Below the pieces are notes generated by a model, which did not search any database, was not told where the DNA came from, and worked only from the letters and a program-made list of their open reading frames with translations. Of a stretch of DNA of 64,000 bases, positions 13,239 through 52,309 are shown piece by piece. Each line of letters begins with the position of its first letter. Position 1 is the stretch's first letter. This DNA comes from Escherichia phage ZX4221: sequence record OR498728.1. The stretch is one strand, 5' to 3'. Both the position numbers and the translations under genes were made by a program.

Positions 13239-13253
13239 ATTCCAATAAAGTTG

Positions 13254-13574: not shown

Positions 13575-13651
13575 GCACCCTTAGTTCAACTGGACAGAGC
13601 AAATGACTTCTAATCATTGAGTTACAGGTTCGAATCCTGTAGGGTGTGCCA
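13575..13651 (+). tRNA. tRNA-Arg (anticodon TCT)
   Basis: Anticodon stem AATGA/TCATT perfect, loop CTTCTAA, T-arm ACAGG-TTCGAAT-CCTGT, acceptor GCACCCT/AGGGTGT, CCA encoded. Confidence 0.75.
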
Positions 13652-13793
13652 AATAGTTAGCAGATTGCTTAGACGACCTTATCGGGTCTCCGTGTAAGGA
13701 GGTGGTCTGTATCTCATGTTTTCCAGAACATGTAAATAATCTGAGAAGGGGCTTTACAGTGTTGCGAAAATACGGTAAGCTTCGAATTATAGT

Positions 13794-13876
13794 GTGGGAC
13801 GATGTTAAGACTCTAAGGCATGAGCAACGGCCTCCAAAACCGTTTCAAAGGGGTTCAACTCCTCCGTCCCATGCCA
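13794..13876 (+). tRNA. tRNA-Trp-like (anticodon CCA) with atypical extended D-region
   Basis: Acceptor GTGGGAC/GTCCCAT, anticodon arm ACGGC-CTCCAAA-ACCGT, T-loop TTCAACT, CCA encoded; about 8 extra nt between acceptor and D-stem, so canonical fold not achieved by hand. Confidence 0.4.
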
Positions 13877-13889
13877 AAGTCTTATTAGG

Positions 13890-13977
13890 GGTAGGTAGCG
13901 GCTAATGGTAGCCAAACTGTCTTGAAAACAGTTGCCACTGTAGAGATACGGTGAGGGTTCGACTCCTTTACTTACCG
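13890..13977 (+). tRNA. tRNA-Ser (anticodon TGA), long variable arm, CCA not encoded
   Basis: Acceptor GGTAGGT/ACTTACC, 3 bp D-stem, anticodon stem ACTGT/ACAGT perfect with loop CTTGAAA, ~20 nt variable arm, T-loop TTCGACT. Confidence 0.6.
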
Positions 13978-14235
13978 CCTAATAAGATTTTACACCGTCC
14001 ATGCTTGCTCGCATTTTCGGTTTATCCCTCGTGTATTGTCGTACACACTGATAAAGCACCTAGTAGGTGTCACGGAGAAGAGATAATATCAAGCTCTCCA
14101 AAGGTTCTAGTCACCGGATTGAACAAGACTATGCAAAGACCTAAATAGGTCTTTTTAGAGGGCTTCTAAGGTTATTACAGCTTGTTGTGGAACCTTGTTG
14201 CTTAGGTTCTTAGAAGTTCTCTAAAAAGATTTAAT

Positions 14236-14312
14236 GCACCTATAGCCCAACTGGTAGAGGCAGCAGACTTAGAATCTGCTCAGTGTGAGTTCGAATCTCT
14301 CTAGGTGTACCA
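14236..14312 (+). tRNA. tRNA-Leu-type anticodon TAG, class I (short variable arm) architecture
   Basis: 77 nt; acceptor GCACCTA/TAGGTGT, anticodon stem GCAGA/TCTGC perfect, loop CTTAGAA, 5 nt variable loop, discriminator A, CCA encoded. Confidence 0.6.
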
Positions 14313-14319
14313 AATTAAT

Positions 14320-14395
14320 GCAGGTGTAGCAAAATGGTTATGCGGCTGACTCTTAATCAGTAAGACGATGGGTTCAATTCCCTCCACCTGTACCA
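14320..14395 (+). tRNA. tRNA-Lys (anticodon CTT)
   Basis: Paralog of tRNA-Lys(TTT): acceptor GCAGGTG/CACCTGT, anticodon loop CTCTTAA, T-loop TTCAATT with same imperfect T-stem, CCA encoded. Confidence 0.6.
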
Positions 14396-14401
14396 AACAT
14401 T

Positions 14402-14477
14402 GGGGATGTAGTTTACATGGTTAAAACATAAGTTTTGCAAACTTAAGTACAGGGTTCAATTCCCTGCTTCTCCACCA
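14402..14477 (+). tRNA. tRNA-Ala (anticodon TGC)
   Basis: G3:U70 wobble pair present in acceptor stem; anticodon stem TAAGT/ACTTA perfect, loop TTTGCAA; T-arm CAGGG-TTCAATT-CCCTG; CCA encoded. Confidence 0.75.
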
Positions 14478-14483
14478 ATTAGT

Positions 14484-14558
14484 GCATCCATAGTTTAAAC
14501 GGGAAAATTACAGTCTTCCAAACTGAGGTTGAGGGTTCGATTCCCTCTGGATGCTCCA
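14484..14558 (+). tRNA. tRNA-Gly (anticodon TCC)
   Basis: Acceptor GCATCCA/TGGATGC perfect, anticodon loop CTTCCAA, T-arm GAGGG-TTCGATT-CCCTC, CCA encoded. Confidence 0.75.
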
Positions 14559-14565
14559 AATTAAT

Positions 14566-14641
14566 GCTCCTATCGTATAATTGGCTATTACGGTTGCCTT
14601 GTAAGCAACTTATCAGGGTTCGAATCCTTGTGGGAGCACCA
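14566..14641 (+). tRNA. tRNA-Thr (anticodon TGT)
   Basis: Anticodon stem GTTGC/GCAAC perfect, loop CTTGTAA, T-arm CAGGG-TTCGAAT-CCTTG, acceptor GCTCCTA/TGGGAGC, CCA encoded. Confidence 0.75.
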
Positions 14642-14645
14642 ATTC

Positions 14646-14731
14646 AGAGGTCAAGTGAAAGACCGCTGGTGTCAACTGAAGACCGTAACAAATTCCACGG
14701 AGTTGAGTTAGCGGCACAACTTCAGACCTCT
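14646..14731 (+). ncRNA. Structured element E, divergent relative of the CAGAAGACC family
   Basis: Outer stem AGAGGTC/GACCTCT; contains CTGAAGACCGTAACAAATT resembling the family 5' box; nested stems CCGCT/AGCGG and CTGAAG/CTTCAG. Confidence 0.3.
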
Positions 14732-14736
14732 TTCAT

Positions 14737-14811
14737 ACTCGCTTAGTTTATATGGTAAAACATCACCCTTACAAGATGGAGAAAAAGGTTCAAGTCCTTT
14801 AGTGAGTACCA
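14737..14811 (+). tRNA. tRNA-Val (anticodon TAC)
   Basis: D-stem GTTT/AAAC, anticodon loop CTTACAA, T-arm AAAGG-TTCAAGT-CCTTT, acceptor ACTCGCT/AGTGAGT, CCA encoded. Confidence 0.7.
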
Positions 14812-14812
14812 T

Positions 14813-14890
14813 GTTCCAGTATCCCAATTGGCAGAGGATGCAAGCTCAAACCTTGTACTAGTGACGGTTCGAATCCGTCTTGGAACACCA
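14813..14890 (+). tRNA. tRNA-Leu-type anticodon CAA, class I (short variable arm) architecture
   Basis: 78 nt; acceptor GTTCCAG/TTGGAAC, anticodon stem GCAAG/CTTGT, loop CTCAAAC, ~6 nt variable loop, T-arm GACGG-TTCGAAT-CCGTC, discriminator A, CCA encoded. Confidence 0.55.
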
Positions 14891-14895
14891 ATTTT

Positions 14896-14971
14896 GCAGG
14901 ATTAGTTCAAATGGATAGAGCAACAGTCTACGAAGCTGTTAATAGGGGTTCGAATCCCTTATCCTGCGCCA
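14896..14971 (+). tRNA. tRNA-Arg (anticodon ACG)
   Basis: Acceptor GCAGGAT/ATCCTGC perfect, D-stem GTTC/GAGC, anticodon loop CTACGAA, T-loop TTCGAAT, CCA encoded. Confidence 0.75.
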
Positions 14972-14989
14972 GATAAGTAAGAGGAATTT

Positions 14990-15232
14990 ATGCAAACATT
15001 AATCGTCGTTGAACATGAAAATTCCAATAGTATTGAGTTTGTAAGGGTTCCCACTATAGATACCCACATTTTCTTGAAAGTCGGATGGGGATGTGACCCA
15101 ATAAAAGTAGAAAATTTTATTGGTCATTACTTTGGTGGAAGACAACTTAAAAGCGTCAATTTTGAGACAATGTTACCAGAAAACTCAGAAACAAATAATA
15201 ATGTTTATCTCCTTACGAGGATTAGACAATGA
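14990..15232 (+). CDS. hypothetical protein inside tRNA array (80 aa)
   Basis: AAGAGGA Shine-Dalgarno 6 nt before ATG; stop overlaps next start (ATGA). Confidence 0.45.
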   Translation: MQTLIVVEHENSNSIEFVRVPTIDTHIFLKVGWGCDPIKVENFIGHYFGGRQLKSVNFETMLPENSETNNNVYLLTRIRQ

Positions 15233-15786
15233 GATATCTGAAGTATGCTTCATGGATTTTCCTAGCTTTGTTAGACCCATTGGCAGCAACCTTAGCAGTT
15301 ATCTTAGCACCCTTTGTAGTCCCATTCTACAGTGAGAAGAAAGGCCATCTACCTTTTGGATTCAGATGGATGGAGACATATGACAACCCGATTGATGGCG
15401 ATGAAGGTCATATGAAACGATGGGCTAAGATTAGAAAGATTGGTAAGCTCGGTGTCTATATGCAGAGAGTTGGCTGGCTCTGGAGAAACAAAGCTTATAA
15501 CTTCTCTTACCATGTGTTAGGAAGAGATGTAAAAGATGTTACTAAGTGGAAAGGTAATATCAACGTGAGTTCTGACCCTGAAGATAATCAGACAGGTTAT
15601 CTCCTAATGTGGAACAGTAATGCTTGGGGATTATTTGCTTTTATCCCATCAATTAAAATCTTTGGTAAACAATTCTACTGGAGAATTTATGTTGGATGGA
15701 AACTTAAAAGTGTTGTCCCAGAAGAAAGAGCATTCTCAAGGGAAAGAGTTATGTTGGCATTCTTTATTCATCCACTGAGAAAGTAA
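15229..15786 (+). CDS. hypothetical protein with hydrophobic N-terminus inside tRNA array (185 aa)
   Basis: ORF-track ORF; translationally coupled to 14990..15232; N-terminal WIFLALLDPLAATLAVILAPFVVPF looks membrane-associated. Confidence 0.5.
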   Translation: MRYLKYASWIFLALLDPLAATLAVILAPFVVPFYSEKKGHLPFGFRWMETYDNPIDGDEGHMKRWAKIRKIGKLGVYMQRVGWLWRNKAYNFSYHVLGRDVKDVTKWKGNINVSSDPEDNQTGYLLMWNSNAWGLFAFIPSIKIFGKQFYWRIYVGWKLKSVVPEERAFSRERVMLAFFIHPLRK

Positions 15787-15794
15787 AGATTTAA

Positions 15795-15870
15795 AGGGGA
15801 TTAGTTTACAAGGTTAAAACCTCGGTCTTTGAAATCGAAGAAGTTGGTTCAATTCCAACATCCCCCGCCA
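15795..15870 (+). tRNA. tRNA-Gln (anticodon TTG)
   Basis: Anticodon stem TCGGT/ATCGA, loop CTTTGAA, T-arm GTTGG-TTCAATT-CCAAC, A1-C72 mismatch at top of acceptor, discriminator G, CCA encoded. Confidence 0.65.
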
Positions 15871-15872
15871 AT

Positions 15873-15951
15873 GCTCCATTACTCCAATTGGCAGAGAGGC
15901 CAGACTTAAAATCTGTGTTATGTATCGGTTCGAATCCGATATGGAGTACCA
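15873..15951 (+). tRNA. tRNA-Leu-type anticodon TAA, class I (short variable arm) architecture
   Basis: 79 nt; acceptor GCTCCAT/ATGGAGT, anticodon stem CAGA/TCTG, loop CTTAAAA, ~7 nt variable loop, T-arm ATCGG-TTCGAAT-CCGAT perfect, discriminator A, CCA encoded. Confidence 0.55.
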
Positions 15952-15956
15952 AATTT

Positions 15957-16032
15957 AGCGGTATAGCATAACTGGCAATGCAGCAGTCTCTGAAGCTGTC
16001 TTATTAAGGTTCAAATCCTTATGCCGCTGCCA
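15957..16032 (+). tRNA. tRNA-Gln (anticodon CTG)
   Basis: Acceptor AGCGGTA/TGCCGCT, D-stem GCAT/ATGC, anticodon loop CTCTGAA, T-arm TAAGG-TTCAAAT-CCTTA, discriminator G, CCA encoded. Confidence 0.65.
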
Positions 16033-16063
16033 CTTCTAAGGGTTCTTACGAGAGTCCTTAAAT

Positions 16064-16139
16064 GTGGCCTTATCATAAATGGTAATGACCCATGCTGTGA
16101 ACATGGTCTATACGGGTTCAAATCCCGTAGGTCACCCCA
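16064..16139 (+). tRNA. tRNA-His (anticodon GTG)
   Basis: Anticodon stem CCATG/CATGG perfect, loop CTGTGAA, D-stem TCAT/ATGA, T-arm ACGGG-TTCAAAT-CCCGT, discriminator C; no encoded G-1 (preceding base is T). Confidence 0.7.
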
Positions 16140-16145
16140 ATTTAT

Positions 16146-16221
16146 AGTCCAAGTAGCTTATATGGTTAAAGCGCGTGTCTGAAAAACATGAGAAGAGGGT
16201 TCAAATCCCACTGGACTACCA
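16146..16221 (+). tRNA. tRNA-Phe (anticodon GAA), irregular acceptor/linker geometry
   Basis: Anticodon stem CGTGT/ACATG, loop CTGAAAA, D-stem GCTT/AAGC, T-loop TTCAAAT; acceptor pairs only as 6 bp or with a 4 nt linker to the D-stem; boundaries uncertain. Confidence 0.55.
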
Positions 16222-16237
16222 ATTTCAAAGGTGCTTA

Positions 16238-16972
16238 ATGAAAGAGATGACAGAACAAGGTAAGGAGATTTTTAATCTCTTAAAAACCGGTAGAGGGTTT
16301 TCTAATCCCCTTATTACTGGTGCAGCAGTTCTCGGTGGAACCGTAGCTGCCTCTACATCACTTGTAAGCTCTATTAGCTCTGTAACAGACCCTACAATAA
16401 AGGATAAGCTTATTGCTGCTGGACTTACAACAGTTCTGCTTAACAGCTTTACAACGAGTCTGACAAGCACTACATCAACCACTAAGACACTGACAGATTA
16501 TGGTCAAAAGTCCATTGATGAGTTTTCATCACGTATGCAGGTAGCAAAAGGATATTCCAATGTTATGGGTGCAGCAGGAGAACAAGTCGGTTGTACACCA
16601 TTTAGTGGTATTATGGGTGTTGCTACAGAATATGGTCAAAAAGCTATTGACACAATTAACAGTGCACTAGATGGTGTTAATGATGTGTTAAGTGACTTAC
16701 AAGATGCTATTGATGAAGGTCTTGATACTATTTCTGATTTAGCTAACCAAGCTGTTAGCAAGATTAATGAAGGTATCTCGAAGATTACAGCTTATGCAGA
16801 TGAAGTTGTGCAGATGATTGAAGAAGAAGCTGCCCTTATTGCAGAGTACCTTAAAACGAATATCAATGGGTTCTTAGCAGGTATCTTACCAGACTGGTTT
16901 GATGATGCTTGTAAAACTGGTGTAATTGATACTATTGCAACACCAGAAATGAAGAACGCATTACAGAAATAA
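16238..16972 (+). CDS. hypothetical Ser/Thr-rich protein (244 aa)
   Basis: ORF-track ORF trimmed to first ATG with RBS (AAAGG) that does not overlap tRNA-Phe. Confidence 0.5.
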   Translation: MKEMTEQGKEIFNLLKTGRGFSNPLITGAAVLGGTVAASTSLVSSISSVTDPTIKDKLIAAGLTTVLLNSFTTSLTSTTSTTKTLTDYGQKSIDEFSSRMQVAKGYSNVMGAAGEQVGCTPFSGIMGVATEYGQKAIDTINSALDGVNDVLSDLQDAIDEGLDTISDLANQAVSKINEGISKITAYADEVVQMIEEEAALIAEYLKTNINGFLAGILPDWFDDACKTGVIDTIATPEMKNALQK

Positions 16973-16973
16973 T

Positions 16974-17066
16974 GGAAGATTAACCCTAAAAGGTAAGGGA
17001 GCAGTTTGCTAAACTGCCAGTAGCTGAGAAATCGGTGTACCAGTTCAAGTCTGGTATCTTCCTCCA
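16974..17066 (+). tRNA. tRNA-Ser (anticodon GCT), long variable arm
   Basis: 93 nt; acceptor GGAAGAT/ATCTTCC perfect, anticodon stem GCAGT/ACTGC perfect, loop TTGCTAA, T-arm ACCAG-TTCAAGT-CTGGT, CCA encoded. Confidence 0.75.
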
Positions 17067-17070
17067 ATTT

Positions 17071-17146
17071 GAATCCGTGACAGAAATGGCTATGTGCCTG
17101 TCTGCAAAACAGGTTTATAAGGGTTCGAGTCCCTTCGGATTCTCCA
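17071..17146 (+). tRNA. tRNA-Cys (anticodon GCA)
   Basis: Acceptor GAATCCG/CGGATTC perfect, anticodon stem CCTGT/ACAGG perfect, loop CTGCAAA, T-arm AAGGG-TTCGAGT-CCCTT, CCA encoded. Confidence 0.75.
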
Positions 17147-28848: not shown

Positions 28849-34235
<5,387 letters not shown>

Positions 34236-36866: not shown

Positions 36867-38042
36867 ATGGCAGTAGGTGAAATTCAAATTAGTGCCTTGC
36901 CACAAGCGGCCTTACCAGTTGATTTAAGTGATATCTTCCACCTTAAGCAAGGTGTTGAGGATAAAAGATGTACGCTTGAACAGTTGTTAGCACCTCACGC
37001 ATCTCTGAGGAATAATCCTCATGGTGTAACTAAATCACAAGTGGGTCTTGATAATGTTATTAACTCTCTCCAATTAGTTGCAGCCAATAACTTGTCAGAC
37101 ATTGTGAATGTTGCTGAGGCAAGAGCAAATCTACAAATTATGTCGTCAGAAGAAGTGAATAACTCAATTCAGCAACATATTGACGACAAAAGTAACCCAC
37201 ACAATACAACGAAAGCACAGGTAGGTTTAAGTAATGTTCAGAACTGGACAACATCTAATCTGTACAATGAAGATGCTGATAAGTACGCTACCGCGAGAGC
37301 AGTGAATAATTTATACAAAGCTATTCAAGCATCATATCCAGTAGGGACTATTCACCTATCTGTTAACTCTGCCAACCCATCCACTTACTTGCTTTGTGGA
37401 GGTACTTGGGAGTTAGTTTCTAAAGGTAGAGCACTGGTTGGTTATGATACAGATTCTAGACCTGTTGGTTCAACTTTTGGTTCTCAGACTGTAGTATTGA
37501 CAAATAACAATTTACCAGCACATACTCACTCTATCTATCTAACAGGGGGTGGTCATACACACTCTGCAAGTGTATCTATCTCTAGTTTTGATTATGGTTC
37601 AAAGAGTACATCAACTTTTGACTACGGTACGAAGGCAACTAACAGTGCTGGTGCTCACACCCACACATTTAGTGGAACGACAAGTAATGCTGGTAACCAC
37701 AACCATAGAGTACCTCTGAGGGGTAATGATAGAAGTGGGTCAAATGCTATTACCGCATCTGCTGATGCTGGGGTTGGTAATGCTTCATATACTGACTTAG
37801 CTGGTGCTCACACCCATAGCTTCTCAGGTACAACTGCATCATCTGGTGCTCATAGTCATACTGTTGCAATTGGTGCTCACAGCCACACTGTCAATATTGG
37901 TTCACACAGTCATACGGGCACTGTTACTGTTTCTAGCTCTGAGCATACACACTCAGGGACATCTGGTTCTGTTGGTGGTGGTCAAGCTTTCAGTGTTGAG
38001 CAGCCATCTTTTGTAGTATATGTGTGGCAGAGAACAGCTTAA
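36867..38042 (+). CDS. tail fibre protein (short), C-terminal His-box repeats
   Basis: Repeated HTHS/AHTH/HSHT motifs and C-terminus ...FSVEQPSFVVYVWQRTA shared with the next gene. Confidence 0.6.
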   Translation: MAVGEIQISALPQAALPVDLSDIFHLKQGVEDKRCTLEQLLAPHASLRNNPHGVTKSQVGLDNVINSLQLVAANNLSDIVNVAEARANLQIMSSEEVNNSIQQHIDDKSNPHNTTKAQVGLSNVQNWTTSNLYNEDADKYATARAVNNLYKAIQASYPVGTIHLSVNSANPSTYLLCGGTWELVSKGRALVGYDTDSRPVGSTFGSQTVVLTNNNLPAHTHSIYLTGGGHTHSASVSISSFDYGSKSTSTFDYGTKATNSAGAHTHTFSGTTSNAGNHNHRVPLRGNDRSGSNAITASADAGVGNASYTDLAGAHTHSFSGTTASSGAHSHTVAIGAHSHTVNIGSHSHTGTVTVSSSEHTHSGTSGSVGGGQAFSVEQPSFVVYVWQRTA

Positions 38043-38051
38043 TTTCTTTAC

Positions 38052-38072
38052 AGGGGCTTTGTAGCCCCTTTT
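38052..38072 (+). terminator. Rho-independent terminator
   Basis: AGGGGCT-TTGT-AGCCCCT hairpin followed by TTTT. Confidence 0.65.
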
Positions 38073-38088
38073 AAGAGGAAAATTTATA

Positions 38089-40638
38089 ATGGCAGATTAC
38101 AAATTGAGTCAATTAAACTCAATCGACACAATTCGTTCAGAAGACCTATTGCACATCAGAGTTAAGAAAAGACCTGAAATGTTGGGTGACGAAGACCGTA
38201 GAATGACCTATCAAGACTTCTTAGCTTCCTTCAAACTAGAAAGGTTTGTTCAGATTGCTGGGAGTACTATGGTTGGGGATTTAGGTATTGTCAAGTTACT
38301 TTACGGTGGTAAGGCAGTATTTGACCCAACAGGCTCTTCTGAGATTACTATTGGGGATATTTTAAAGACTTTTAAAATTAACTCAAATGGGCTTAAACTC
38401 ACTATTGCAGATGCCACAAGGTCGGCAACTGTTTATCATACTTTGAATAAACCAAGCCCTAATGAACTTGGTATGAGAACTAATGAAGAGAATGATGCAA
38501 GATATGCAAGGCTTGCTGTTACAAACACATTCTCTGGGACTCAGAACATTCAAGGTGATGCTAACTTACTTCGCCTTAGAAACCGAAATGCAAACAATGC
38601 ACAATACATTGAAGGTGTAAACCCAGATGGTTCAGCTAGATGGTGGGTTGGTATTGGTAGCAATGGTTCTGACGAAGTAAAACTGTACAATAACAAATAC
38701 AACTCAGTCTTGACTGTTGCAAGTAATATCTCTGTTAATAAGTCTTTAGCAATCACTGGACAAGTCCAACCTTCAGATTTCTCTAACTTAGATGCTAGAT
38801 ACTTTACTCAGACAGTTGCTAATCAGAGATTTGCACAGTTAGCTGGCAATAATACTTTTACAGGTGCTAACACATTTAGGACTATGAGTGTTATTTCAAA
38901 TGCTGCTGCTATCACACTGCAATGTGCATCAGCAAACGAATCACTGTATCTACTTGCAAAAGATTATGAAGGTGGAAACTTATGGTATCTTGGTAAAGGT
39001 AGTTCAGGTGCTGGTGTAACTATCTACAACTATACCACTAACACCTCTTTGGTCTTAGATGCTGCTGGAGTATCAGCAAATAAAAATGTCAGAATCACTG
39101 GACAAGTTCAACCTTCAGATTGGGCTAACATTGACTCTAGATATATTCCGGCAGCAACATTAAGTACAATTGCAAGAACTAATGCAAGGAATACTTTTAA
39201 TGGTGTACAGACAGTTGTTACGGATAATGAAGGTCTGATTGTTAAAAACTCTACTCAGAATAGACCATTATATATTCGTGGTGTGGACACTGCTAATGTA
39301 TCAAGATGGTGGATTGGTGTTGGTGGTGCTGATACGAATGATGTTACCCTAAATAACAGTTATTCTGGAACCCAATTGGTTCTCGGGAATACAACATCAT
39401 ACATTAACAAAACATTGACTATTGCTGGACAAGTTCAACCTTCAGATTTTTCTAACTTAGATGCTAGATACTTTACGCAAAGTGCTAGTGATAGCAGATA
39501 CCTAAGAATCAGAAGCACTAGCTTCAATGTGGGAAACACTGAGAAGTGGGCTAAAATTGCCACTGTTGTGATGCCACAATCAGCATCAACTGCTGTTATT
39601 GAGGTATTTGGTGGGTCAGGTTTTAATATTAATACACCACAACAAGCAGGTAAATGTGAAATTGTTCTGCGAACTTCAAATAACAATCCAAAGGGCTTAA
39701 ATGTTGTTGCTTGGAGAACATCAGATAACACCATCGTCAGGGATATTGGTTATGTGAATACTTCTGGAGACACCTATGATATTTACTATCTTGCTGGTAC
39801 GTATCAAAACAGCACAACGACAAGGGTTCAGTCTTCTAGGAATGCAAGTGTACAGTTGTTTGAAGTCCCACAGACATTTGATGATGCTCCACAAGGTATT
39901 GTGAAGGGTACAATTGCAAAATACTACACAAGTTTGCAAAAACCAACCCCTTCAGATATTGGTGCATACACTAAAGCAGAGACTGACCAGAAGATTGCAG
40001 ATGCAATTAGTGACTCTACAGACCTGAATAAAATCTATCCAGTAGGTATTGTGACGTGGTTTAACAGCAATGTTAACCCTAATACAGCACTTCCTGGGTT
40101 AACTTGGACGTACCTGAACAATGGTGTTGGTAGAACTATTAGGATTGCAGCAGCAAATGGTTCAGATGTTGCTACAACTGGTGGTTCAGATTCTGTAACG
40201 TTATCTGTTGGTAACTTACCTTCACACACGCATAGTTTCTATGCTACCACTTCATCATTTGATTATGGTACTAAGACGACAAATACGACTGGCAACCATG
40301 CTCATGATAGAGGTAACATGGAAATTTCTGGTGTGTTTGGTTGGTTCAGAAGTGATAACGGTGCATTCTACACTGCTAGTGGTGCATTTGTGATGGGTGG
40401 TAGTCAGGCTTCGCATGGCTTCACAGGCTCTAACTTCACTTATGGTGCGCCTGTTGATTTCCACGCGTCAAGAACTTGGACAGGTGTAACCAACACGACT
40501 GGTAACCACGCCCACAGTGTAGGTATTGGCGCTCACAGCCACACAGTTAGTGGTAACACAGGTGGTACTGGTTCTGGTTCAGCATTTAGTGTTACTAACC
40601 AGTTCTATAAGCTAATGGCTTGGGTAAGAACTGCTTAA
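38089..40638 (+). CDS. tail fibre protein (long), internal repeats and C-terminal His-box domain
   Basis: 849 aa; three internal copies of ...ITGQVQPSD(F/W)(S/A)N(L/I)D(A/S)RY...; C-terminal NLPSHTHSF ... GNHAHSVGIGAHSHTV ... MAWVRTA. Confidence 0.65.
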   Translation: MADYKLSQLNSIDTIRSEDLLHIRVKKRPEMLGDEDRRMTYQDFLASFKLERFVQIAGSTMVGDLGIVKLLYGGKAVFDPTGSSEITIGDILKTFKINSNGLKLTIADATRSATVYHTLNKPSPNELGMRTNEENDARYARLAVTNTFSGTQNIQGDANLLRLRNRNANNAQYIEGVNPDGSARWWVGIGSNGSDEVKLYNNKYNSVLTVASNISVNKSLAITGQVQPSDFSNLDARYFTQTVANQRFAQLAGNNTFTGANTFRTMSVISNAAAITLQCASANESLYLLAKDYEGGNLWYLGKGSSGAGVTIYNYTTNTSLVLDAAGVSANKNVRITGQVQPSDWANIDSRYIPAATLSTIARTNARNTFNGVQTVVTDNEGLIVKNSTQNRPLYIRGVDTANVSRWWIGVGGADTNDVTLNNSYSGTQLVLGNTTSYINKTLTIAGQVQPSDFSNLDARYFTQSASDSRYLRIRSTSFNVGNTEKWAKIATVVMPQSASTAVIEVFGGSGFNINTPQQAGKCEIVLRTSNNNPKGLNVVAWRTSDNTIVRDIGYVNTSGDTYDIYYLAGTYQNSTTTRVQSSRNASVQLFEVPQTFDDAPQGIVKGTIAKYYTSLQKPTPSDIGAYTKAETDQKIADAISDSTDLNKIYPVGIVTWFNSNVNPNTALPGLTWTYLNNGVGRTIRIAAANGSDVATTGGSDSVTLSVGNLPSHTHSFYATTSSFDYGTKTTNTTGNHAHDRGNMEISGVFGWFRSDNGAFYTASGAFVMGGSQASHGFTGSNFTYGAPVDFHASRTWTGVTNTTGNHAHSVGIGAHSHTVSGNTGGTGSGSAFSVTNQFYKLMAWVRTA

Positions 40639-40717: not shown

Positions 40718-40915
40718 ATGCCTACAATCCTAGCAATTCTTCTAAAAAATCTAGGTAGCTTCTTCTGGAAACTCATTTTATCCCTTCTAAGTGAATACAT
40801 GATTGAGAAAGTGTTCTTTAAGCTTGCAAGATATCTTGCGAGTAAAACAGACACACCTATTGATGATGAGTTCGTAGATAACTTAGAAAAAGCTTTTAAG
40901 GGGGAGAATAAATGA
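40718..40915 (+). CDS. hypothetical small protein with hydrophobic N-terminus (65 aa), possible lysis-associated
   Basis: ORF-track ORF. Confidence 0.35.
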   Translation: MPTILAILLKNLGSFFWKLILSLLSEYMIEKVFFKLARYLASKTDTPIDDEFVDNLEKAFKGENK

Positions 40916-41283
40916 AGTGGCTAGAGGAAGCTTTTAAAAATAATATTGGTGCAATTGTAGTTGGTATTTTTAGTGTTATTGGGATGTATACCACCATGCA
41001 AGTCTCGGATGGTAAGCAAGAAGTGTCTGTCACAACAAAGTTACAGCAGCTAGATAATTATAGCAAATCTAATTACTCAGCTATTCGTGATTTACAGTCT
41101 GACATGAGACTGATTCAGCTAGGGATGGAGAACCAGAAAGTTCAGTTAGAGAATGTTAAGGGTGAGAATGCAAAACTTACTAAGACTCTTGATAAATTCT
41201 CTGACAGTGTGAACAATCTGGCTCAATCAGTATCAGCCTTGCAAGCTATTACTGAAAAGAACACAAAGAATACTGAAAAATAA
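40912..41283 (+). CDS. membrane-anchored coiled-coil protein (spanin- or holin-like candidate)
   Basis: One N-terminal TM (IGAIVVGIFSVIGMYTTM) followed by heptad-like Q/L/N-rich sequence. Confidence 0.4.
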   Translation: MKWLEEAFKNNIGAIVVGIFSVIGMYTTMQVSDGKQEVSVTTKLQQLDNYSKSNYSAIRDLQSDMRLIQLGMENQKVQLENVKGENAKLTKTLDKFSDSVNNLAQSVSALQAITEKNTKNTEK

Positions 41284-44418: not shown

Positions 44419-44802
44419 TTAGATACCTGTGCAGCTTCTGTTTTCTAAGAAATATTCAACACCGTACATAGATTTTTGCATCAAATCTTCTTTAAACTGG
44501 ATACGATGGTTGAGCATAGCCTGTACATCAATATCGTCATGGTGCTTCTCTTTAATATTTGCAGATTGCAGGAAATACTCTGCAAGAACACGATACTGAT
44601 AGTCAGTCACCTTATCTGTCATCTCTGTCAAAGACTCTTCAGAGATTGGTTTAAGTAGCTCACCATTAGCTAGGGCAACACCTTTTACAATCTGGCAAGT
44701 GTCTTCTGGAACACCTGATAAGTCCACATTTGGAAGTTCTGTTGCATTGACTGGTAAATTCATTGCCATAACCATTGCAGCAGCTAATAAAATCTTTTTC
44801 AT
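44419..44802 (-). CDS. secreted/periplasmic protein with N-terminal signal peptide
   Basis: MKKILLAAAMVMAMNLPVNA then polar sequence. Confidence 0.55.
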   Translation of the reverse strand: MKKILLAAAMVMAMNLPVNATELPNVDLSGVPEDTCQIVKGVALANGELLKPISEESLTEMTDKVTDYQYRVLAEYFLQSANIKEKHHDDIDVQAMLNHRIQFKEDLMQKSMYGVEYFLENRSCTGI

Positions 44803-44917
44803 AATGACCTCAAAGTTATATTAAATTTTGTATTACATTGAGTATAAAAATAAGCTATAACACCTGACTTGTCAACAGACTTTATAGCTTATTTGGCAGA
44901 TTTTTTATAAGGTTACT

Positions 44918-45291
44918 GCCATCCTTCCATACCAAACCTCACCTGACCTCGCCTAACCCTACCTTACCCCACCATACAGCACCTTATTAAAACACCCTGT
45001 TTAAAGACCTTTTAAAAAGGTAAGTCTCATTTTAATGTAGCTGAGACTAACTACCCATACCTCACCCTACCAGACCCTACCAGACCAGACCTTACCCTAC
45101 CAGACCCTACCGAACATCACTTAAAAACCCTCTTAGAAGACTCTTAAGTGATGTAATCGAATTTTAATGTAGCTCCGATTAACTACCCATACCTCACCTC
45201 ACCCAACCATACCATGCCTTGCCAGACCGCACCTTACCTCATTAAAAGACCCTCTTAAAAGACCTTTTAAAAAGGAGCCTCCGAAGAGGCT
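44918..45291. repeat. Composite intergenic repeat block I: three units of a pentamer-periodic CC tract (NNACC)n plus a conserved hairpin module
   Basis: Tracts such as ATACC TCACC CTACC AGACC CTACC AGACC AGACC TTACC...; conserved modules TTAAAAGACCCTCTTAAAGACCTTTTAAAAAG, GTCTCATTTTAATGTAGCTGAGAC and ATCACTTAA...TTAAGTGAT recur here and at 46428..46730. Confidence 0.7.
45265..45291 (-). terminator. Rho-independent terminator downstream of CDS 45303..45743
   Basis: Minus strand AGCCTC-TTCG-GAGGCT hairpin followed by CCTTTTTAAAAGG. Confidence 0.6.
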
Positions 45292-45302
45292 ACCTAGTCA
45301 AC

Positions 45303-45745: not shown

Positions 45746-46351
<606 letters not shown>

Positions 46352-46427
46352 TTAGTTGATTGTTAAGTTGTTTGTAAAGAACCCTCAACAGAAGACTCTT
46401 TAGAAACTTGGTAGATTTTTAACGTGG

Positions 46428-46730
46428 CTACTACCATCCACCCACACCGTGCCACACCACACCACACCATACCCAACTCCACCTAATCCTACCACACCTT
46501 ATTAAAAGACCCTCTTAAAGACCTTTTAAAAAGATAAGTCTCATTTTAATGTAGCTGAGACTAACTACCCATACCGAACCTCACCGCACCATACTACACC
46601 TGACACCACCTTACACCACCGCACCATACCTGACCGAGCTACACATCACTTAAAAACCCTTTTCAAAGACTCTTAAGTGATGCTGGTGAGTACCCGTTGG
46701 TTTATGCTGCTCAGTATACTCACCAAATTT
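46428..46730. repeat. Composite intergenic repeat block II: two units of the same CC-tract plus hairpin module
   Basis: CTACCATCCACCCACACCGTGCCACACCACACCACACC... tract and the same hairpin modules as block I; ends with inverted repeat GGTGAGTA/TACTCACC. Confidence 0.7.
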
Positions 46731-46736
46731 TCTATG

Positions 46737-46925
46737 TCAACAAATTTCTAATAAAGTTTTATGAAGATTTTGCTTAACAACCCGCCTCACATGCCTGTGC
46801 TCTTTCTTAATAAAGAGTGACCTCTTCTTGATAGAGCGCCTATTCTTGTAAGTGTTGCTAGGGTACTTATCATGAACCGGACAACAACTACCCGTATTTG
46901 TAAACTTGATAATCTCTCTTTTCAC
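46737..46925 (-). CDS. hypothetical small basic protein (62 aa)
   Basis: ORF-track ORF; Arg/Lys-rich. Confidence 0.35.
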   Translation of the reverse strand: MKREIIKFTNTGSCCPVHDKYPSNTYKNRRSIKKRSLFIKKEHRHVRRVVKQNLHKTLLEIC

Positions 46926-48061
46926 TATTCATAATCCCTAATAACTAGCCCGACAGGGAACTGTAAAGAACCCTTACGAGTCATCTTCTGGAACTGTACT
47001 GTTAAAGGCTTCCCGATAAACTCATCAGGATGCTCAGCAAGATACTGTTTCTTCTCATGAGTAGTCTTCCATGAGACATCTACAAAGACGTTAGGAAGAG
47101 TCTCTACAACGAACTTACCGTGGCCACGCTTATCAGTCTTTACACCAGTCACTTTAAACTCTTCAGTGTGCATCTTCTTATGCTTAATCAAGAAGTATGA
47201 ACGGTGACCACACTCGTAGAAAGATTCTTCAGAGATTGAGCGGTACATTGCACCTTCAAACTTAGCTTCAACCCACTTATCATGAGCTTCATCAAACTCT
47301 TCCCAAGAGTTAACACGGATAGTCTGTACAGGAACAACTCTACAGGTATCACCAAACTCAACAATGGGTGAGTTATCAATAACTTCACGACGCTCAGGCC
47401 AAGTTTTTGAATTGTCGCAGATATCATACCAGTAGAACTTAAGAAGGTGACGGTCTGGATTGTCAGCATTCTTAATCATAGACACAATATCTTCTAAGTC
47501 CCAACCATGAGCATAAATCTCACCATCAAAGTCTTCTACTTGTGGATGCAATTTAAGCAACAAAAGCAAATCTGGGATTAGTTCTTCTGGGACGTTGTAA
47601 ATAGTATTCTCACGAGAATAAGCCGTGAAGCTAACTAAATCAGCATCTCTTGAAATTCTACAACGTACACCATCAAGTTTTGGTTGAGCATCAGCAGGGA
47701 ATATTAAATACTTTGCATGACTCACCTTTGCAGCATCATGAGCAAGCTGCACACCTACCTTCTCAGTATTCTGTGCAGACTCTTTTGTGTAAGCATAACC
47801 TTTACGGTCAACTTGCTTTTTATACTTAGCAGCAACTTCAAAGAGAGCTTGCTGTTCAGCGTTACGCTCATTCTTTTTACCGATGTTTTTAGGTTCTGCT
47901 GTATACTCTTCAAACATCATCTTGCCATTTTCTTTACCGTAGGTTGTAATAACTTTGTCACCTACAGCAACACATGACCAGACATTGAAAGAGCCATCTT
48001 TATTTTGTTTGTACAGTATTGTCATTTTTAACCTCTGAGTGATACCAAGTGTAACAAGCAT
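46925..48061 (-). CDS. ATP-dependent DNA ligase
   Basis: KxDG adenylation motif (PKLDGVRC) in a 378 aa protein. Confidence 0.8.
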   Translation of the reverse strand: MLVTLGITQRLKMTILYKQNKDGSFNVWSCVAVGDKVITTYGKENGKMMFEEYTAEPKNIGKKNERNAEQQALFEVAAKYKKQVDRKGYAYTKESAQNTEKVGVQLAHDAAKVSHAKYLIFPADAQPKLDGVRCRISRDADLVSFTAYSRENTIYNVPEELIPDLLLLLKLHPQVEDFDGEIYAHGWDLEDIVSMIKNADNPDRHLLKFYWYDICDNSKTWPERREVIDNSPIVEFGDTCRVVPVQTIRVNSWEEFDEAHDKWVEAKFEGAMYRSISEESFYECGHRSYFLIKHKKMHTEEFKVTGVKTDKRGHGKFVVETLPNVFVDVSWKTTHEKKQYLAEHPDEFIGKPLTVQFQKMTRKGSLQFPVGLVIRDYE

Positions 48062-48218
48062 TACATGCGTAAAGCTCTAAGTCATTTTTATCTGGTTTAT
48101 GGAAACAGTTTGACCCACAACGACACCGGAATAGTTTACCATCAACACGAAGAATGAATGTTTCAAGCTCACCATCTTCTGTAAGAACTGCGTTCTTAAA
48201 TTTATCTTCTACAGTCAT
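48000..48218 (-). CDS. hypothetical Cys-rich small protein (72 aa)
   Basis: CRCGSNC ... CNAC cysteine pairs. Confidence 0.4.
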   Translation of the reverse strand: MTVEDKFKNAVLTEDGELETFILRVDGKLFRCRCGSNCFHKPDKNDLELYACNACYTWYHSEVKNDNTVQTK

Positions 48219-48520
48219 TTTCTCTTACCACCAATCTCTACGTCGATAACTTGAACATCGCCAGCAACATCAAACTTATGAATGATGCTTTCCACAGTGT
48301 AAGTCCAACCCCCAATGCGAACCAACTCACCTTCTCGTGGGACGATTGGATTACGTTGAGCTACGGTTGTAGTGGAGTGAACAACATCATAACAGTAGAT
48401 ATAGTTTACTAGGACTTCCATCGTAAAAACCTCACTCAATAACCGTAGTATGTGATTGACTATTTTTATCATATCTATAAGATGTTGTTGTTTGAGAGTT
48501 TGGACATCTGACAACAACAA
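48215..48520 (-). CDS. hypothetical protein (101 aa)
   Basis: ORF-track ORF; start probably internal as it overlaps the next gene. Confidence 0.4.
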   Translation of the reverse strand: MLLSDVQTLKQQHLIDMIKIVNHILRLLSEVFTMEVLVNYIYCYDVVHSTTTVAQRNPIVPREGELVRIGGWTYTVESIIHKFDVAGDVQVIDVEIGGKRK

Positions 48521-48668
48521 TATCTGTGCTTATTGCATCACCATTTAACTTATAGACTTTGCAATCTTGCATCTCTGGTGGGAGGCTATAAGAAGCGTTT
48601 TTGTCCTCGTAAGAGGGATTACAGCCAGATAGAAAAATAACACCAAGCGCAATTACTACTTTCCACAT
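48432..48668 (-). CDS. putative lipoprotein (78 aa)
   Basis: MWKVVIALGVIFLSGC: signal peptide with lipobox-like LSGC. Confidence 0.5.
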   Translation of the reverse strand: MWKVVIALGVIFLSGCNPSYEDKNASYSLPPEMQDCKVYKLNGDAISTDIVVVRCPNSQTTTSYRYDKNSQSHTTVIE

Positions 48669-48855
48669 AATACTTCTCCTATTTACTGTTCACGATGTTC
48701 TACTTCTCTGTACGTTCGTCGATAGTTTATAATAAGCTGTGCTAATTCGTTGCTTTTAACATCTGAACGTAGCAGTTGCCAATCAAAACCTTTACCGACT
48801 CTTCCATATAAACTAAAGAATTTTACTTTGCGTTTCATTTTGGTGTTCCCAATAC

Positions 48856-49083
48856 TCAGAGGTCAACGCTAATACGTTCACCCTTAAGGACTCCTGTACG
48901 GTCTCTTGCAATCTTACCGTCAACAATAAGGATATGCGCAGACTTTAAAGATTCACTATTAAAACCTTTTACGAACTTACTAGGCATCACCACAATAAGC
49001 ATCTCTTGAATCAACTCTGGAGTGTAGCAATTATCGTGAAGTTGCTGAATAACGTCTGCAAGTGTCATTTTTGATGTCTCCAA
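48856..49083 (-). CDS. hypothetical small protein, paralog of 49271..49489
   Basis: Shared C-terminal pattern (I/F)(V/A)(D/G)GKIA(R/K)D(R/K)TG.LKGER(I/V). Confidence 0.45.
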   Translation of the reverse strand: METSKMTLADVIQQLHDNCYTPELIQEMLIVVMPSKFVKGFNSESLKSAHILIVDGKIARDRTGVLKGERISVDL

Positions 49084-49274
49084 TATTCAATATCAATAAG
49101 TTCTTGTGCAATGCTTTTCAGATTACCTTTCAAGAAAACCTTCTCAGAACCTGAAAGAGATGAATTGTCAATTAACCTGTTCATTCTCTCAAACAACTTC
49201 TGCTTACGGTTCTTGATAGTTTCCTTTGAAGCACCTTTCATCATCGCTGCATGGGTTCTTCCACGGTGGCTCAT
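49065..49274 (-). CDS. hypothetical small protein (69 aa)
   Basis: ORF-track ORF between the two paralogs. Confidence 0.4.
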   Translation of the reverse strand: MSHRGRTHAAMMKGASKETIKNRKQKLFERMNRLIDNSSLSGSEKVFLKGNLKSIAQELIDIEYWRHQK

Positions 49275-49489
49275 AGTAAACTCTCAATATTTACACGCTC
49301 ACCTTTTAAGTAGCCTGTCTTATCTTTTGCGATTTTACCTCCAGCAATAAAGATATCTACTCTACGTAGAACTTCAGGGTTTACCTTCAAATTCCTACAG
49401 CTACTGCAAAGAACAATAAACATCCCTTCAATCTCTTTTTGAGAATAACCTGCACATTGCAACTGAACTTCAATCTCTGAAAGTGTCAT
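49271..49489 (-). CDS. hypothetical small protein, paralog of 48856..49083
   Basis: See paralog. Confidence 0.45.
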   Translation of the reverse strand: MTLSEIEVQLQCAGYSQKEIEGMFIVLCSSCRNLKVNPEVLRRVDIFIAGGKIAKDKTGYLKGERVNIESLL

Positions 49490-49550: not shown

Positions 49551-52250
49551 TTAGTGTACTTCAAGCCAGCTTTTGCCAACCTTACCAGTACCTGTAACAA
49601 GCGTTTCTTTCTTAAGACCTAAGTTTTTAGAAGCTTGTCCATAATACCAGTCAGTAACTGCTTTCACATCTGCCGTCATACTCTCTGGACATTCCCAACT
49701 CGTCTCGTCGTGATATGCGCAGAGCAAACGAGCACCAATAGCTGGTTGACGACCATTCAACTTCATCAAACCTTCGTCAATCATACGACGACAAGCAAGG
49801 TTAATCGCCTCATTTTGAATCTGAGCCTCTGAACCCATTAGCAAATAATTCAATAACTTATGTGGAGATTTACACCACAACCAAGCTCCAGCAACCCTTA
49901 CAAAACCCCCTTTAGAGATTGCAGCAGTTTTACCAAACACCTCTTCAAGTGCCTTTTTAGTTGCTTTGTAGTCAGCTTCCAAGTCATCTAGCAACTTCTT
50001 AATTTTAGGCAAACGAATAAAGTAAGTCTGTTTAGTCAGTGCACCTTCCTGAGTAGTTGCAGCTTTAATCGTCTTAGCAAACTTCTCATCACCTGCACCG
50101 AACAGTAGTGCATAGATACCATTCTTAGCTTTCTTACGGCCCTTGCTAATCTCATGGAGAAGGTTCTCATCCTGAGTAGCTCGACAAGTCAAGATATCCT
50201 GCTCATCATTCAAGCTAAAGTAAATACTGTTCAGTGTGTGTGCATCAGTCCCTGAATAGACAACGTAAAGGTCGTTCTCAGAGTCATAGCGAAGGTACTT
50301 ATCAATCTCTGGGTTGAGGTACTCATCAAAGTGTTTGCAGTAATAGCGTCCATCTTCTTGACGAATAAACTCAATCTCTTCTTTACCTTGCGTTACCGCT
50401 TTGGTGAAGTCTTTGTCACCCATAAAGTTACAAAGAAGAACTAGCTGGGCTGAGTTCATGTCTACAGAGACAACGTTAGTACCTTCCTCACAAATCCATA
50501 CTGCCCTCATTGGTTCCCCATAGACAGCAGCACCAGACGGTACGTTTACAATACCATACTGTGTCATACGTCCAGTTGAAGTACCAAATACCATTGCACC
50601 AGCACTAAGGCGACCATCTGGACGAATCTGGTTCAACCAACCTTTTTCATCATCCTTTGAGTTCTCAATAGTTCTGCGTCGGTGCATCAAGGTATAGTAC
50701 TTAGCAATCTTCTGTCCAAGCTCACCTTCAATCGTATCATAAGATGATTCAGTAAGTTTTGGTGAAGTACGGATTAAGCAAGGCTCAAGCAAATCTGTGT
50801 ACTTCTTCACAGACCAGTTATGCTCAATGTATTGGACACCTTCATGTTCAACATAACTCAAACCACACCGTTCAACCATCTCCTGCCACTTAGGATGCTT
50901 GGTAATCATCTTTTTGTTGTCTTTGAAACGACAAACCTTAACAGGACGACCATCTGAGTCTTTCTTGTAGTTCCAGTCATCTGGAATCCAACCAACTGAT
51001 TTCAAGTAGTCTTTAACAACTGCTACCTGAGTCATACGAGAAACTTCGAACTCAATTGGTGTATATGGTGCATCAATCAAACCTGTGTAGCGACTTGACT
51101 CAAGTTCAAAGTGGTTAACAACATGACTGTTATAGTACTTCACAGTCTTAACTGTTTTTACTGGCTTCCAGTCTTTGCACTTCTTACCAATCTTTGCATT
51201 CAACTCATTGCAAATTGCACGAGCATCCTTCATTGCTACAAAACCTTCCTTGTACTCTTCACCAGTTACAGAGTTGGTTGGGGTATAGCAATTCCGCTTT
51301 TCAATGTTAAAAATCTTGGTAGTTGGTTTACCAAATGGCTTGATTTCATATGTCTGCATCTCACCGTTACGTACCTGTTGACGATACTTTGTCTTAGGGT
51401 ACTTGGTAATTCTTTTCAGTCCATCTGCATGACCAAACGCTTCAACATACTCATTCCAAGCTTTTGCAAACTCTTCTCCAGTAACTTTACCTTTGGTTTT
51501 AATAGTTGGAGGAAGATGTGGTTCAACTTCTGAAGCAAGCTCATTAGTCAACTTGTCAAGTTCCTTTACATGGAACTCCATAAGCTCTTTATCAGCTTTC
51601 CAACCATTGATAGCCTGTTGACTCATCCAGAAAGATGTTTCTTTAGCTCGCATGTAGGTTTCATAAGTATCTACGCCACACTTCTTCAGCTTGAGATATT
51701 CATTATCCAGTGCACGTTTAGTTTTGGCGTTAATACGAATATCCTCTACGACACGAGTGAAGATTTCTGCATTCCACACACCCCAATGTTCAATCTCTGG
51801 TTTACGTACACCAACACGAGCACCCCATGCTGCCAAGCCATGAGCACCTTTATAGCCCTTTGGAGTTGGTCTATCCATCCACTGAACACGAGACTGGATA
51901 AGAGAATCCTGAAAGAAATTACTCCACGGCTTACACTTTGGATTATCAAAGTTCCATAAATCAGGTGCAATGTGATTGAAAACCCACCAGTCATAACCCA
52001 GACCATTATGGATGCAAAGTCGTTTTGCCTTTAACGCAAACTCAATACCTTCACGCAAACCACCCTTGATGTACTTGGTGTATTTGTGACCGAGGATAGG
52101 CTCATCTGTAAAGACCCATACAGGTGGCTCTTCATCGTCAGATTTATAGTCTGCGAAAGCCATTACGTGCACTTTAGTGAACTCAAGGAGTAAACCATCA
52201 GTTTCTGTATCACCAACTAAATGTAAGTTTTTAAAATCTACGTTTTCCAT
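49551..52250 (-). CDS. DNA polymerase, family A, with 3'-5' exonuclease domain
   Basis: N-terminal DTETDGL (exo motif I); VDMNSAQLVLL (motif A-like); KNGIYALLFGAG (motif B-like); YHDE (motif C); start set to ATG following AGAGGGAG RBS. Confidence 0.85.
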   Translation of the reverse strand: MENVDFKNLHLVGDTETDGLLLEFTKVHVMAFADYKSDDEEPPVWVFTDEPILGHKYTKYIKGGLREGIEFALKAKRLCIHNGLGYDWWVFNHIAPDLWNFDNPKCKPWSNFFQDSLIQSRVQWMDRPTPKGYKGAHGLAAWGARVGVRKPEIEHWGVWNAEIFTRVVEDIRINAKTKRALDNEYLKLKKCGVDTYETYMRAKETSFWMSQQAINGWKADKELMEFHVKELDKLTNELASEVEPHLPPTIKTKGKVTGEEFAKAWNEYVEAFGHADGLKRITKYPKTKYRQQVRNGEMQTYEIKPFGKPTTKIFNIEKRNCYTPTNSVTGEEYKEGFVAMKDARAICNELNAKIGKKCKDWKPVKTVKTVKYYNSHVVNHFELESSRYTGLIDAPYTPIEFEVSRMTQVAVVKDYLKSVGWIPDDWNYKKDSDGRPVKVCRFKDNKKMITKHPKWQEMVERCGLSYVEHEGVQYIEHNWSVKKYTDLLEPCLIRTSPKLTESSYDTIEGELGQKIAKYYTLMHRRRTIENSKDDEKGWLNQIRPDGRLSAGAMVFGTSTGRMTQYGIVNVPSGAAVYGEPMRAVWICEEGTNVVSVDMNSAQLVLLCNFMGDKDFTKAVTQGKEEIEFIRQEDGRYYCKHFDEYLNPEIDKYLRYDSENDLYVVYSGTDAHTLNSIYFSLNDEQDILTCRATQDENLLHEISKGRKKAKNGIYALLFGAGDEKFAKTIKAATTQEGALTKQTYFIRLPKIKKLLDDLEADYKATKKALEEVFGKTAAISKGGFVRVAGAWLWCKSPHKLLNYLLMGSEAQIQNEAINLACRRMIDEGLMKLNGRQPAIGARLLCAYHDETSWECPESMTADVKAVTDWYYGQASKNLGLKKETLVTGTGKVGKSWLEVH

Positions 52251-52309
52251 TTTTACTCCCTCTAAAATCATTAACCTCATACATTACTGCAAAAAATTAT
52301 AAAAAGCAA

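Follow-up and report, generated by a model that had tools for sequence, protein, structure and literature searches.

Three phage-encoded exclusion lipoproteins are understood structurally or genetically, namely Llp of the virulent phage T5, Cor (T1, phi80, N15 and HK022; PHROG 1119), and Rtp45 of phage Rtp. Llp is a small outer-membrane lipoprotein of 77 amino acids (aa) that blocks FhuA (PDB 8A60, 7QJF), which is also the target of T1 Cor, and the cor gene sits beside tail genes. Rtp45 is a ~6 kDa lipoprotein with one disulfide and a beta hairpin that works at the periplasmic face of the outer membrane (PMC12685063), where it binds LptDE (PDB 9RPS; PMC12685063). The rtp45 gene directly adjoins the receptor-binding locus, and in T1-like phages the pairing of an exclusion gene with a receptor-binding gene is the rule (BASEL study, PMC8594841). 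Rz1-type o-spanins, the outer-membrane spanin subunits of the last lysis step, are likewise small phage-encoded outer-membrane lipoproteins. The present analysis concerns a small lipoprotein gene at 48432..48668 on the minus strand of a 64,000-nucleotide stretch of Escherichia phage ZX4221 (sequence record OR498728.1), referred to below as the window. The source phage is a Felix O1-like myophage of Felixounavirus, and window positions 47000-50500 show 92-96% nucleotide identity to many Escherichia and Salmonella Felixounavirus genomes.

The window gene is another member of a known, uncharacterised lipoprotein family, DUF4884 / PHROG 902. Its product resembles Llp in size (78 vs 77 aa), in having Cys in the mature part, in coming from a virulent phage and, probably, in being expressed before the late genes, and it is a small phage lipoprotein as Cor is. 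However, the window gene adjoins no receptor-binding protein gene as rtp45 and the T5 gene do, and the receptor of this phage group is reported to be lipopolysaccharide (LPS). The family stands apart from spanins and from all three exclusion lipoproteins. Its members are very numerous and almost all carried by phages, are predicted to be strictly lipidated and are highly conserved in their core, and they occur in unrelated virulent phages with different receptors. The best explanation, put forward tentatively, is an outer-membrane lipoprotein that faces the periplasm, contains a disulfide and acts on a host envelope component which is conserved.

Gene, signal peptide and lipobox

An earlier note on this DNA had described a 78-aa open reading frame (ORF) with a signal peptide and a lipobox-like cysteine. 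Its coordinates are exact, its N-terminus reads MWKVVIALGVIFLSGC, no in-frame start lies upstream of it in the sequence, and the cysteine stands in a canonical lipobox conserved across a very large family. Packing is tight, as the stop codon of the preceding gene occupies 48683..48685 and the lipoprotein gene starts 14 nucleotides (nt) on. Invariance is given below for two independent 115-sequence alignments of the family, A2 and A3.

48432..48668, minus strand: coding sequence of the 78-aa prolipoprotein, stop included, a PHROG 902 / DUF4884 member (ORF list and sequence)
48676..48680, minus strand: Shine-Dalgarno AGGAG, 7 nt before the ATG (read from the sequence)
48624..48668, minus strand: signal peptide, residues 1-15 (MWKVVIALGVIFLSG), from the sequence, with the same layout in 251/253 relatives
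48621..48632, minus strand: canonical lipobox L13-S14-G15-C16, with C16 invariant (115/115 in A2 and A3)
48435..48623, minus strand: mature 63-residue domain C16-E78, predicted all-beta, with Asn at +2

The signal peptide begins with a basic n-region (MWK), which is followed by an uncharged, 9-residue hydrophobic core (VVIALGVIF). By the general lipoprotein pathway, signal peptidase II would cleave after residue 15, and C16 is predicted to be the acylated first residue of the mature lipoprotein. Under the Lol sorting rule of E. coli, Asp at position +2 keeps a lipoprotein in the inner membrane. Since the window protein has Asn at +2 and thus no Asp retention signal, transfer to the outer membrane is predicted, and the lipoprotein is probably sorted there.

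A loose lipoprotein signal-peptide pattern matched a single ORF in the 64 kb window, that at 48432..48668. In 60 shuffled versions of the window, generated by a first-order Markov model, the same pattern matched a mean of 2.7 ORFs (range 0-10). As shuffles of this AT-rich window give 2.7 matches, the lipobox motif alone is no better than chance, and on the sequence evidence it is conservation, not the motif alone, that makes the lipoprotein gene real.

Conservation and family assignment

A word-indexed search of 5.8 billion proteins returned relatives that are 62-95% identical, every one with a lipobox, and proteins 94-96% identical occur in other Felixounaviruses. When 1.84 billion cluster representatives were searched exhaustively with HMMER, 665 reached E<=1e-3 and 108 also reached E<=1e-10, and almost every one was 75-110 aa long. 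The lipobox is found in 251/253 collected family members, most frequently as LAGC, LVGC, LTGC or LSGC, and the exceptions are one 5'-truncated fragment and one mis-started ORF. Exactly three columns are invariant in both A2 and A3, namely C16, C36 and C55, and the family consensus reads Y-x-L-P-x-E-L-x-D-C-K-[IV]-Y ... V-V-R-C-P-N-S-x-T-[TS]-T-x-Y-x-x-G-K. The core features of the window copy are as follows.

48561..48563, minus strand: codon of invariant Cys36, in the motif L-P-x-E-L-x-D-C-K-[IV]-Y (115/115 in A2 and A3)
48504..48506, minus strand: codon of invariant Cys55, probably disulfide-bonded to Cys36 (115/115 in A2 and A3)
48483..48509, minus strand: the family's most conserved stretch, R54-C-P-N-S-Q-T-T-T62 (A3 column counts)

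Within this last stretch the A3 counts per 115 are 112 for R54, 114 for P56, 104 for N57, 111 for S58 and 114 for T60 (90-99%). AlphaFold2 models of the mature domain show an all-beta arrangement of five strands with a predicted local distance difference test score (pLDDT) of 67-69, in which strands 37-42 and 50-54 are consecutive, C36 preceding the former and C55 following the latter. That an exported protein should keep this Cys pair without exception suggests a disulfide formed in the periplasm, which would link Cys36 to Cys55. Some members go beyond this layout, as 31/251 (P0016, P0017, P0031, P0038, P0048 and others) contain five Cys in the mature protein, with the extra pair, which suggests a second disulfide, in a C-G-K-N-C motif standing where G-K is otherwise found. 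Many other members carry a C-terminal V-[VI]-D-G-V-x-Y motif in one or two repeats, which Felixounavirus proteins are without.

The window lipoprotein matches PHROG 902, whose function is unknown, over residues 1-76 at E 6.9e-16, while distant family members match it at E 1e-8 to 1e-14. The relatives found in the large protein database all come with a precomputed tag for Pfam PF16225 (DUF4884; unmarked matches, E<=1e-5). However, when the protein, close homologs of it and 115 members of the family were scanned against a local Pfam-A copy, no PF16225 match appeared even at E<=10, and the only matches were of the signal-peptide type (LPAM_1 and alike). The PF16225 model may be absent from the local Pfam-A copy, and membership in Pfam DUF4884 rests on precomputed and third-party annotation. 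Such annotation includes a GenBank assignment of pfam16225 to a member from the Drexlerviridae (T1-like). The Drexlerviridae DUF4884 protein vB_EcoS-95 gp35 aligned by hhalign to the family profile over 68 columns that include both Cys (probability 95%, E 2e-8). Through this alignment, the window protein and the annotated DUF4884 proteins form one superfamily. An NCBIfam scan gave no match for the window lipoprotein and, for its relatives, weak signal-peptide matches to TrbK, EexN and LptM and nothing else. No functional study of DUF4884 or of a Felixounavirus lipoprotein was found in the literature, and the HIDEN-SEQ preprint holds no relevant mention. The gene, its lipobox, its family and its conservation are established directly.

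Sequence evolution and residue 67

Within Felixounavirus, the ratio of nonsynonymous to synonymous substitution rates (dN/dS) of the mature domain is 0.17-0.31, computed on 63 codons and with no positive selection claimed, vs 0.01-0.02 for the polymerase and 0.04-0.12 for the ligase in the same genome pairs. Compared with Salmonella phage UAB_69, the lipoprotein is 79% identical, the polymerase 99% and the ligase 97.5%, while the tail fibres are 52-76% identical. Amino-acid changes cluster in loop residues 40-48 and also around 65-70. As far as these sequence comparisons go, the pattern is one of purifying selection on the conserved core next to a fast-changing loop, and such a loop would fit adaptation to host-specific variation of a target.

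The window lipoprotein has C36, C55 and the R54-T62 core like the rest of the family, but D67 replaces the family's G67.

48465..48470, minus strand: D67-K68 at the family's G-K position, where G is found in 100-102/115 (87-89%) and D in 2

Gly occupies position 67 in all close Felixounavirus relatives examined. Two metagenome-assembly sequences, P0013 and P0014, are 64-aa Felixounavirus variants with a frameshift after residue 43-46 and an unrelated Cys-rich tail, and are either pseudogenised copies or assembly errors.

It could be argued that the ORF arose by chance or is a decaying, functionless gene in this phage. The recurrence of the lipobox pattern in shuffled sequence, the rare G67D change in the window copy, the frameshifted copies in assemblies and the fact that phage SUSP1 manages without the gene would all fit such a view. 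Given the conservation described above, it is considered very improbable.

Genomic setting and accessory status

The lipoprotein gene lies in a leftward string for replication and nucleotide metabolism, in which the DNA polymerase gene (49551..52280) is followed by seven small genes and by the DNA ligase gene (46925..48061), with dihydrofolate reductase and thymidylate synthase beyond the ligase. The lipoprotein gene stands between those for polymerase and ligase. The earlier note had assigned the gene to an early leftward module. The leftward replication string is borne out, while the timing is a reading of gene order only. No terminator-like site was found between the lipoprotein gene and the DNA polymerase gene, and a scan for promoters and terminators gave matches no more frequent than in shuffles. 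The neighbours of the gene encode 51-aa and 68-aa proteins without a transmembrane segment. The tail-fibre genes (36867..40638, plus strand) lie ~8 kb away on the opposite strand, as does a putative holin gene (40912..41283), both by synteny with phages Mijalis, SUSP1 and UAB_69.

In SUSP1 (Suspvirus, same subfamily), an unrelated 70-aa protein of PHROG 3474 (31008..31220, minus strand), which has no signal peptide, is encoded in the corresponding slot between the PHROG 4427 and PHROG 4230 genes, and no family member is detectable within the first 50 kb of that phage. As SUSP1 lacks a family member in the syntenic slot, the lipoprotein gene is accessory, and this slot is a gene-replacement site within the Ounavirinae. 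In a CRISPRi-ART screen of SUSP1, all small genes of the cluster scored 'Not Fit' (PMC11879866, supplementary file 16). Since SUSP1 lacks the lipoprotein gene, this screen says nothing about it.

Beside the lipoprotein gene, 48856..49083 and 49271..49489 (both minus strand) are paralogous small genes of PHROG 4230 (E 6e-41 and 7e-37) that flank a 69-aa PHROG 5180 gene on the stretch from the lipoprotein gene to the DNA polymerase gene. This pair looks like a local duplication in a variable small-gene cluster. On the other side, a 72-aa ORF at 48000..48218 (minus strand) has a zinc-ribbon-like CxC...CxxC pattern and overlaps the long ORF that contains the ligase, and its homolog (PHROG 5768) is variably labelled 'DNA ligase' or 'hypothetical' in GenBank.

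Distribution in phages and bacteria

The same hypothetical protein is already present in ~200 Felix O1-like phage genomes. By tblastn the family was found in 579 phage records, and in more with a second query. It occurs in Felixounavirus, Mooglevirus, Vequintavirinae (Certrevirus), Asteriusvirus jumbo phages, an Erwinia jumbo phage, Vibrio Demerecviridae, Acinetobacter Saclayvirus and T4-like phages, Aeromonas Plateaulakevirus and T4-like phages, and a Pseudomonas T4-like phage, with distant members in Drexlerviridae. The family thus spans at least eight phage lineages, with hosts in the genera Escherichia, Salmonella, Vibrio, Aeromonas, Acinetobacter, Erwinia and Pseudomonas. No member was found in the first 50 kb of Shigella phage pSf-1. 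Among nine loci compared from different phage lineages, no neighbouring gene is common to more than two, which indicates that the family gene moves and works alone. The distribution, the lack of linkage to receptor-binding genes and the dispensability of the gene are direct observations.

A scan for the core peptide VVRCPNS[SQT]T in one genome per species across 185,579 prokaryotic species found a single locus. As the pattern is strict, this result is no census and only hints that phages are the main carriers of the family. This sole bacterial chromosomal copy encodes a 92-aa family member and lies on a contig of Hylemonella gracilis ATCC 19624 (5956..6234, plus strand). Its neighbours are a comM-like Mg-chelatase fragment, a helix-turn-helix regulator, an endonuclease/phosphatase-family gene and two ABC-3C-type genes (CTD10, DUF2326), a setting that suggests a mobile or defence island.

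The company of ABC-3C-type defence-island genes invites a role in counter-defence or in protection from competitors. The lipoprotein would then neutralise an envelope-located host defence, or block the import of colicins, contact-dependent toxins or other mobile elements. It would be in keeping with this role that the gene is accessory, sits in a variable slot and evolves faster in amino-acid sequence than its neighbours. However, a PADLOC scan of the lipoprotein gave no match, the Hylemonella context is a single case and the argument is purely circumstantial. This role is regarded as distinctly unlikely.

Comparison with exclusion lipoproteins

The earlier note stated that small phage lipoproteins are known to block receptors in superinfection exclusion. 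In a mechanism of this kind, modelled on T5 Llp, T1 Cor and Rtp45, the lipoprotein would attach from within the periplasm to the receptor that the phage itself uses and render it unusable to further phages and to debris-trapped progeny. The build of the window protein agrees with that of these three proteins, being predicted to be an outer-membrane lipoprotein of ~60 mature residues that is beta-rich and contains a Cys pair. Furthermore, the lipoprotein diverges faster than its flanking genes between E. coli-type and Salmonella-type phages, as tail fibres do, and one GenBank record names a homolog 'Cor superinfection exclusion protein'.

The similarity to the known proteins, however, does not extend beyond the export signal. 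By hhalign, the family profile aligned with Llp over 19 columns, with T1 Cor over 19 and with Rtp45 over 24 (probability 48%), and these columns cover the signal peptide and lipobox only. A PDB profile search found no solved structure beyond signal-peptide matches, though Llp (8A60/7QJF) was in the library, and a fold search gave no match to Llp. PHROG 1119, the Cor family, matched the window lipoprotein at E 0.1 over residues 1-37 only, and some family members at 1e-3 to 0.1. The protein in the record that bears the Cor label, vB_Ec-M-J (Asteriusvirus; 2501..2752), matched PHROG 902 at E 5e-13 vs 9e-4 for the Cor PHROG, the latter over the N-terminal 49 residues. A label that rests on so weak a PHROG 1119 match (E ~1e-3) is probably an over-annotation that could spread.

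The setting and distribution of the gene also speak against a receptor blocker. The lipoprotein gene is not beside the tail-fibre genes, whereas known exclusion lipoprotein genes are. For Felix O1-type phages, LPS and not a protein is reported as the receptor (PMC8594841), and the family is common to phages that infect at least seven host genera and must therefore rely on different receptors. In the gene table of the T1-like phage Henu8, a DUF4884 protein is listed in the early region, Cor beside the tail fibre, and an Rz-like spanin as well. Since Henu8 lists DUF4884, Cor and the spanin separately, DUF4884 is unlikely to duplicate either role. A receptor-blocking role is therefore somewhat disfavoured, by evidence that is indirect, and is judged unlikely, while exclusion through some other, conserved target is possible. 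Rtp45 shows that small exclusion lipoproteins can target an essential, conserved machine.

Comparison with spanins

A role as an outer-membrane spanin subunit (Rz1-like) in the last step of lysis could be entertained because the window protein is small, is predicted to be an outer-membrane lipoprotein and comes from the single lipobox ORF of the 64 kb window, and because some family members weakly match a PHROG 'Rz-like spanin' in their N-terminal region only (E 6e-4 to 0.2). Unlike Rz1-type o-spanin genes, however, the window gene has no adjacent i-spanin gene, since its neighbours encode no membrane-anchored partner, and it stands in the replication cluster, far from holin and endolysin and outside the lysis cassette. 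Its mature part contains 4 Pro in 63 residues and is not proline-rich. In addition, Citrobacter phage Mijalis (Ounavirinae) encodes a 78%-identical homolog, annotated as hypothetical, and has an overlapping i-spanin/o-spanin pair of its own (84437..84947) next to rIIB. As Mijalis carries this separate pair besides the homolog, and Henu8 too is listed with both a spanin and a DUF4884 protein, the o-spanin role was rejected as highly improbable.

Proposed function

From these observations we infer the processing, disulfide, localisation, target and function of the lipoprotein as follows. The gene would be transcribed along with the leftward replication genes, and its product would be exported by Sec and lipidated at Cys16 by Lgt, LspA and Lnt. 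Once the Cys36-Cys55 disulfide has formed in the periplasm, a beta-rich domain of roughly 7 kDa would face the periplasm. There, it may bind a host envelope component conserved across Gammaproteobacteria and not the phage's own receptor, a step proposed with low confidence. Binding would alter the envelope of the infected cell to the benefit of the phage. The likeliest benefit would be that the infected cell is guarded from secondary attack or entry by receptor-independent exclusion, and an alternative would be control of envelope integrity or lysis timing. A conserved target is proposed because the core motif is strongly conserved, the family is indifferent to phage lineage and receptor, the gene stands alone, and Henu8 lists a DUF4884 protein together with Cor.

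Several points weigh against this proposal. The +2 residue is mostly S, T, N, E, G or A across the family, but it is D in 33/251 members (~13%), which would be retained in the inner membrane if their hosts were enterobacteria. Anchoring in the outer membrane may consequently not be essential. The idea of a conserved host target draws on distribution and motif conservation, the timing of expression is taken from gene order, and the rare G67D change could mean that the window copy is impaired.

The same observations would suit an envelope stabiliser, a lysis-timing factor or an inhibitor of a periplasmic enzyme. A protein of this kind would bind a tethering component of the cell wall or outer membrane, a hydrolase or a protease, and keep the cell intact until programmed lysis. 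The stand-alone gene, the conserved core, the wide spread irrespective of receptor and the predicted periplasmic location fit a generic target, and the members with Asp at +2 suggest that the membrane of anchorage may not matter. However, no similarity to known lysozyme or protease inhibitors or to lysis regulators was found in Pfam, NCBIfam, PHROGs, PDB sequence or fold searches, and the gene lies outside the lysis region. Such a role is rather unlikely.

A broader possibility, speculative and about as doubtful as the envelope stabiliser, is that DUF4884 constitutes a receptor-independent class of phage envelope effectors that has spread horizontally and binds one conserved machine of Gammaproteobacteria. 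This may be an essential outer-membrane or periplasmic machine, such as LptDE, BAM, Lol or Tol-Pal, contacted through the R-C-P-N-S-x-T-T-T strand. If so, the infected cell would gain generic protection, or its envelope biogenesis would be taken over.

Whichever target the conserved-component proposal leads to, its identification would reveal what many lytic phages must change in the periplasm or outer membrane, and an essential envelope machine as the target could indicate a new surface for inhibition. With Felix O1-type phages in use in food safety and in therapy cocktails, an exclusion function, if true, would matter for cocktail design.

Second predicted exported protein and other features of the window

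The earlier note also mentioned a second exported protein, which exists as described and has a plausible Sec signal peptide.

44419..44802, minus strand: second predicted exported protein, 127 aa (translation), PHROG 4332 (E 3e-67, function unknown), separate from the lipoprotein gene

The N-terminus of this protein, MKKILLAAAMVMAMNLPVNA followed by TE, can plausibly be read as a Sec signal peptide, with V-x-A at -3/-1, and two Cys stand in the mature part. Pfam, NCBIfam and PADLOC gave no assignment for it.

Two stretches of the leftward string, 44803..45302 and 46349..46924 (~500-575 bp), contain no ORF of at least 45 aa except a 62-aa GTG ORF at 46737..46925, and neither matches an Rfam family. 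The region's best sigma-70-like match, TTGACA-16-TATACT at 46740..46713 (minus strand), falls inside the second stretch, and a terminator-like hairpin is found at 45291..45276. Elsewhere in the window, 24 transfer RNA genes are clustered at 11887..17143 (plus strand), as is typical of Felix O1-like phages.

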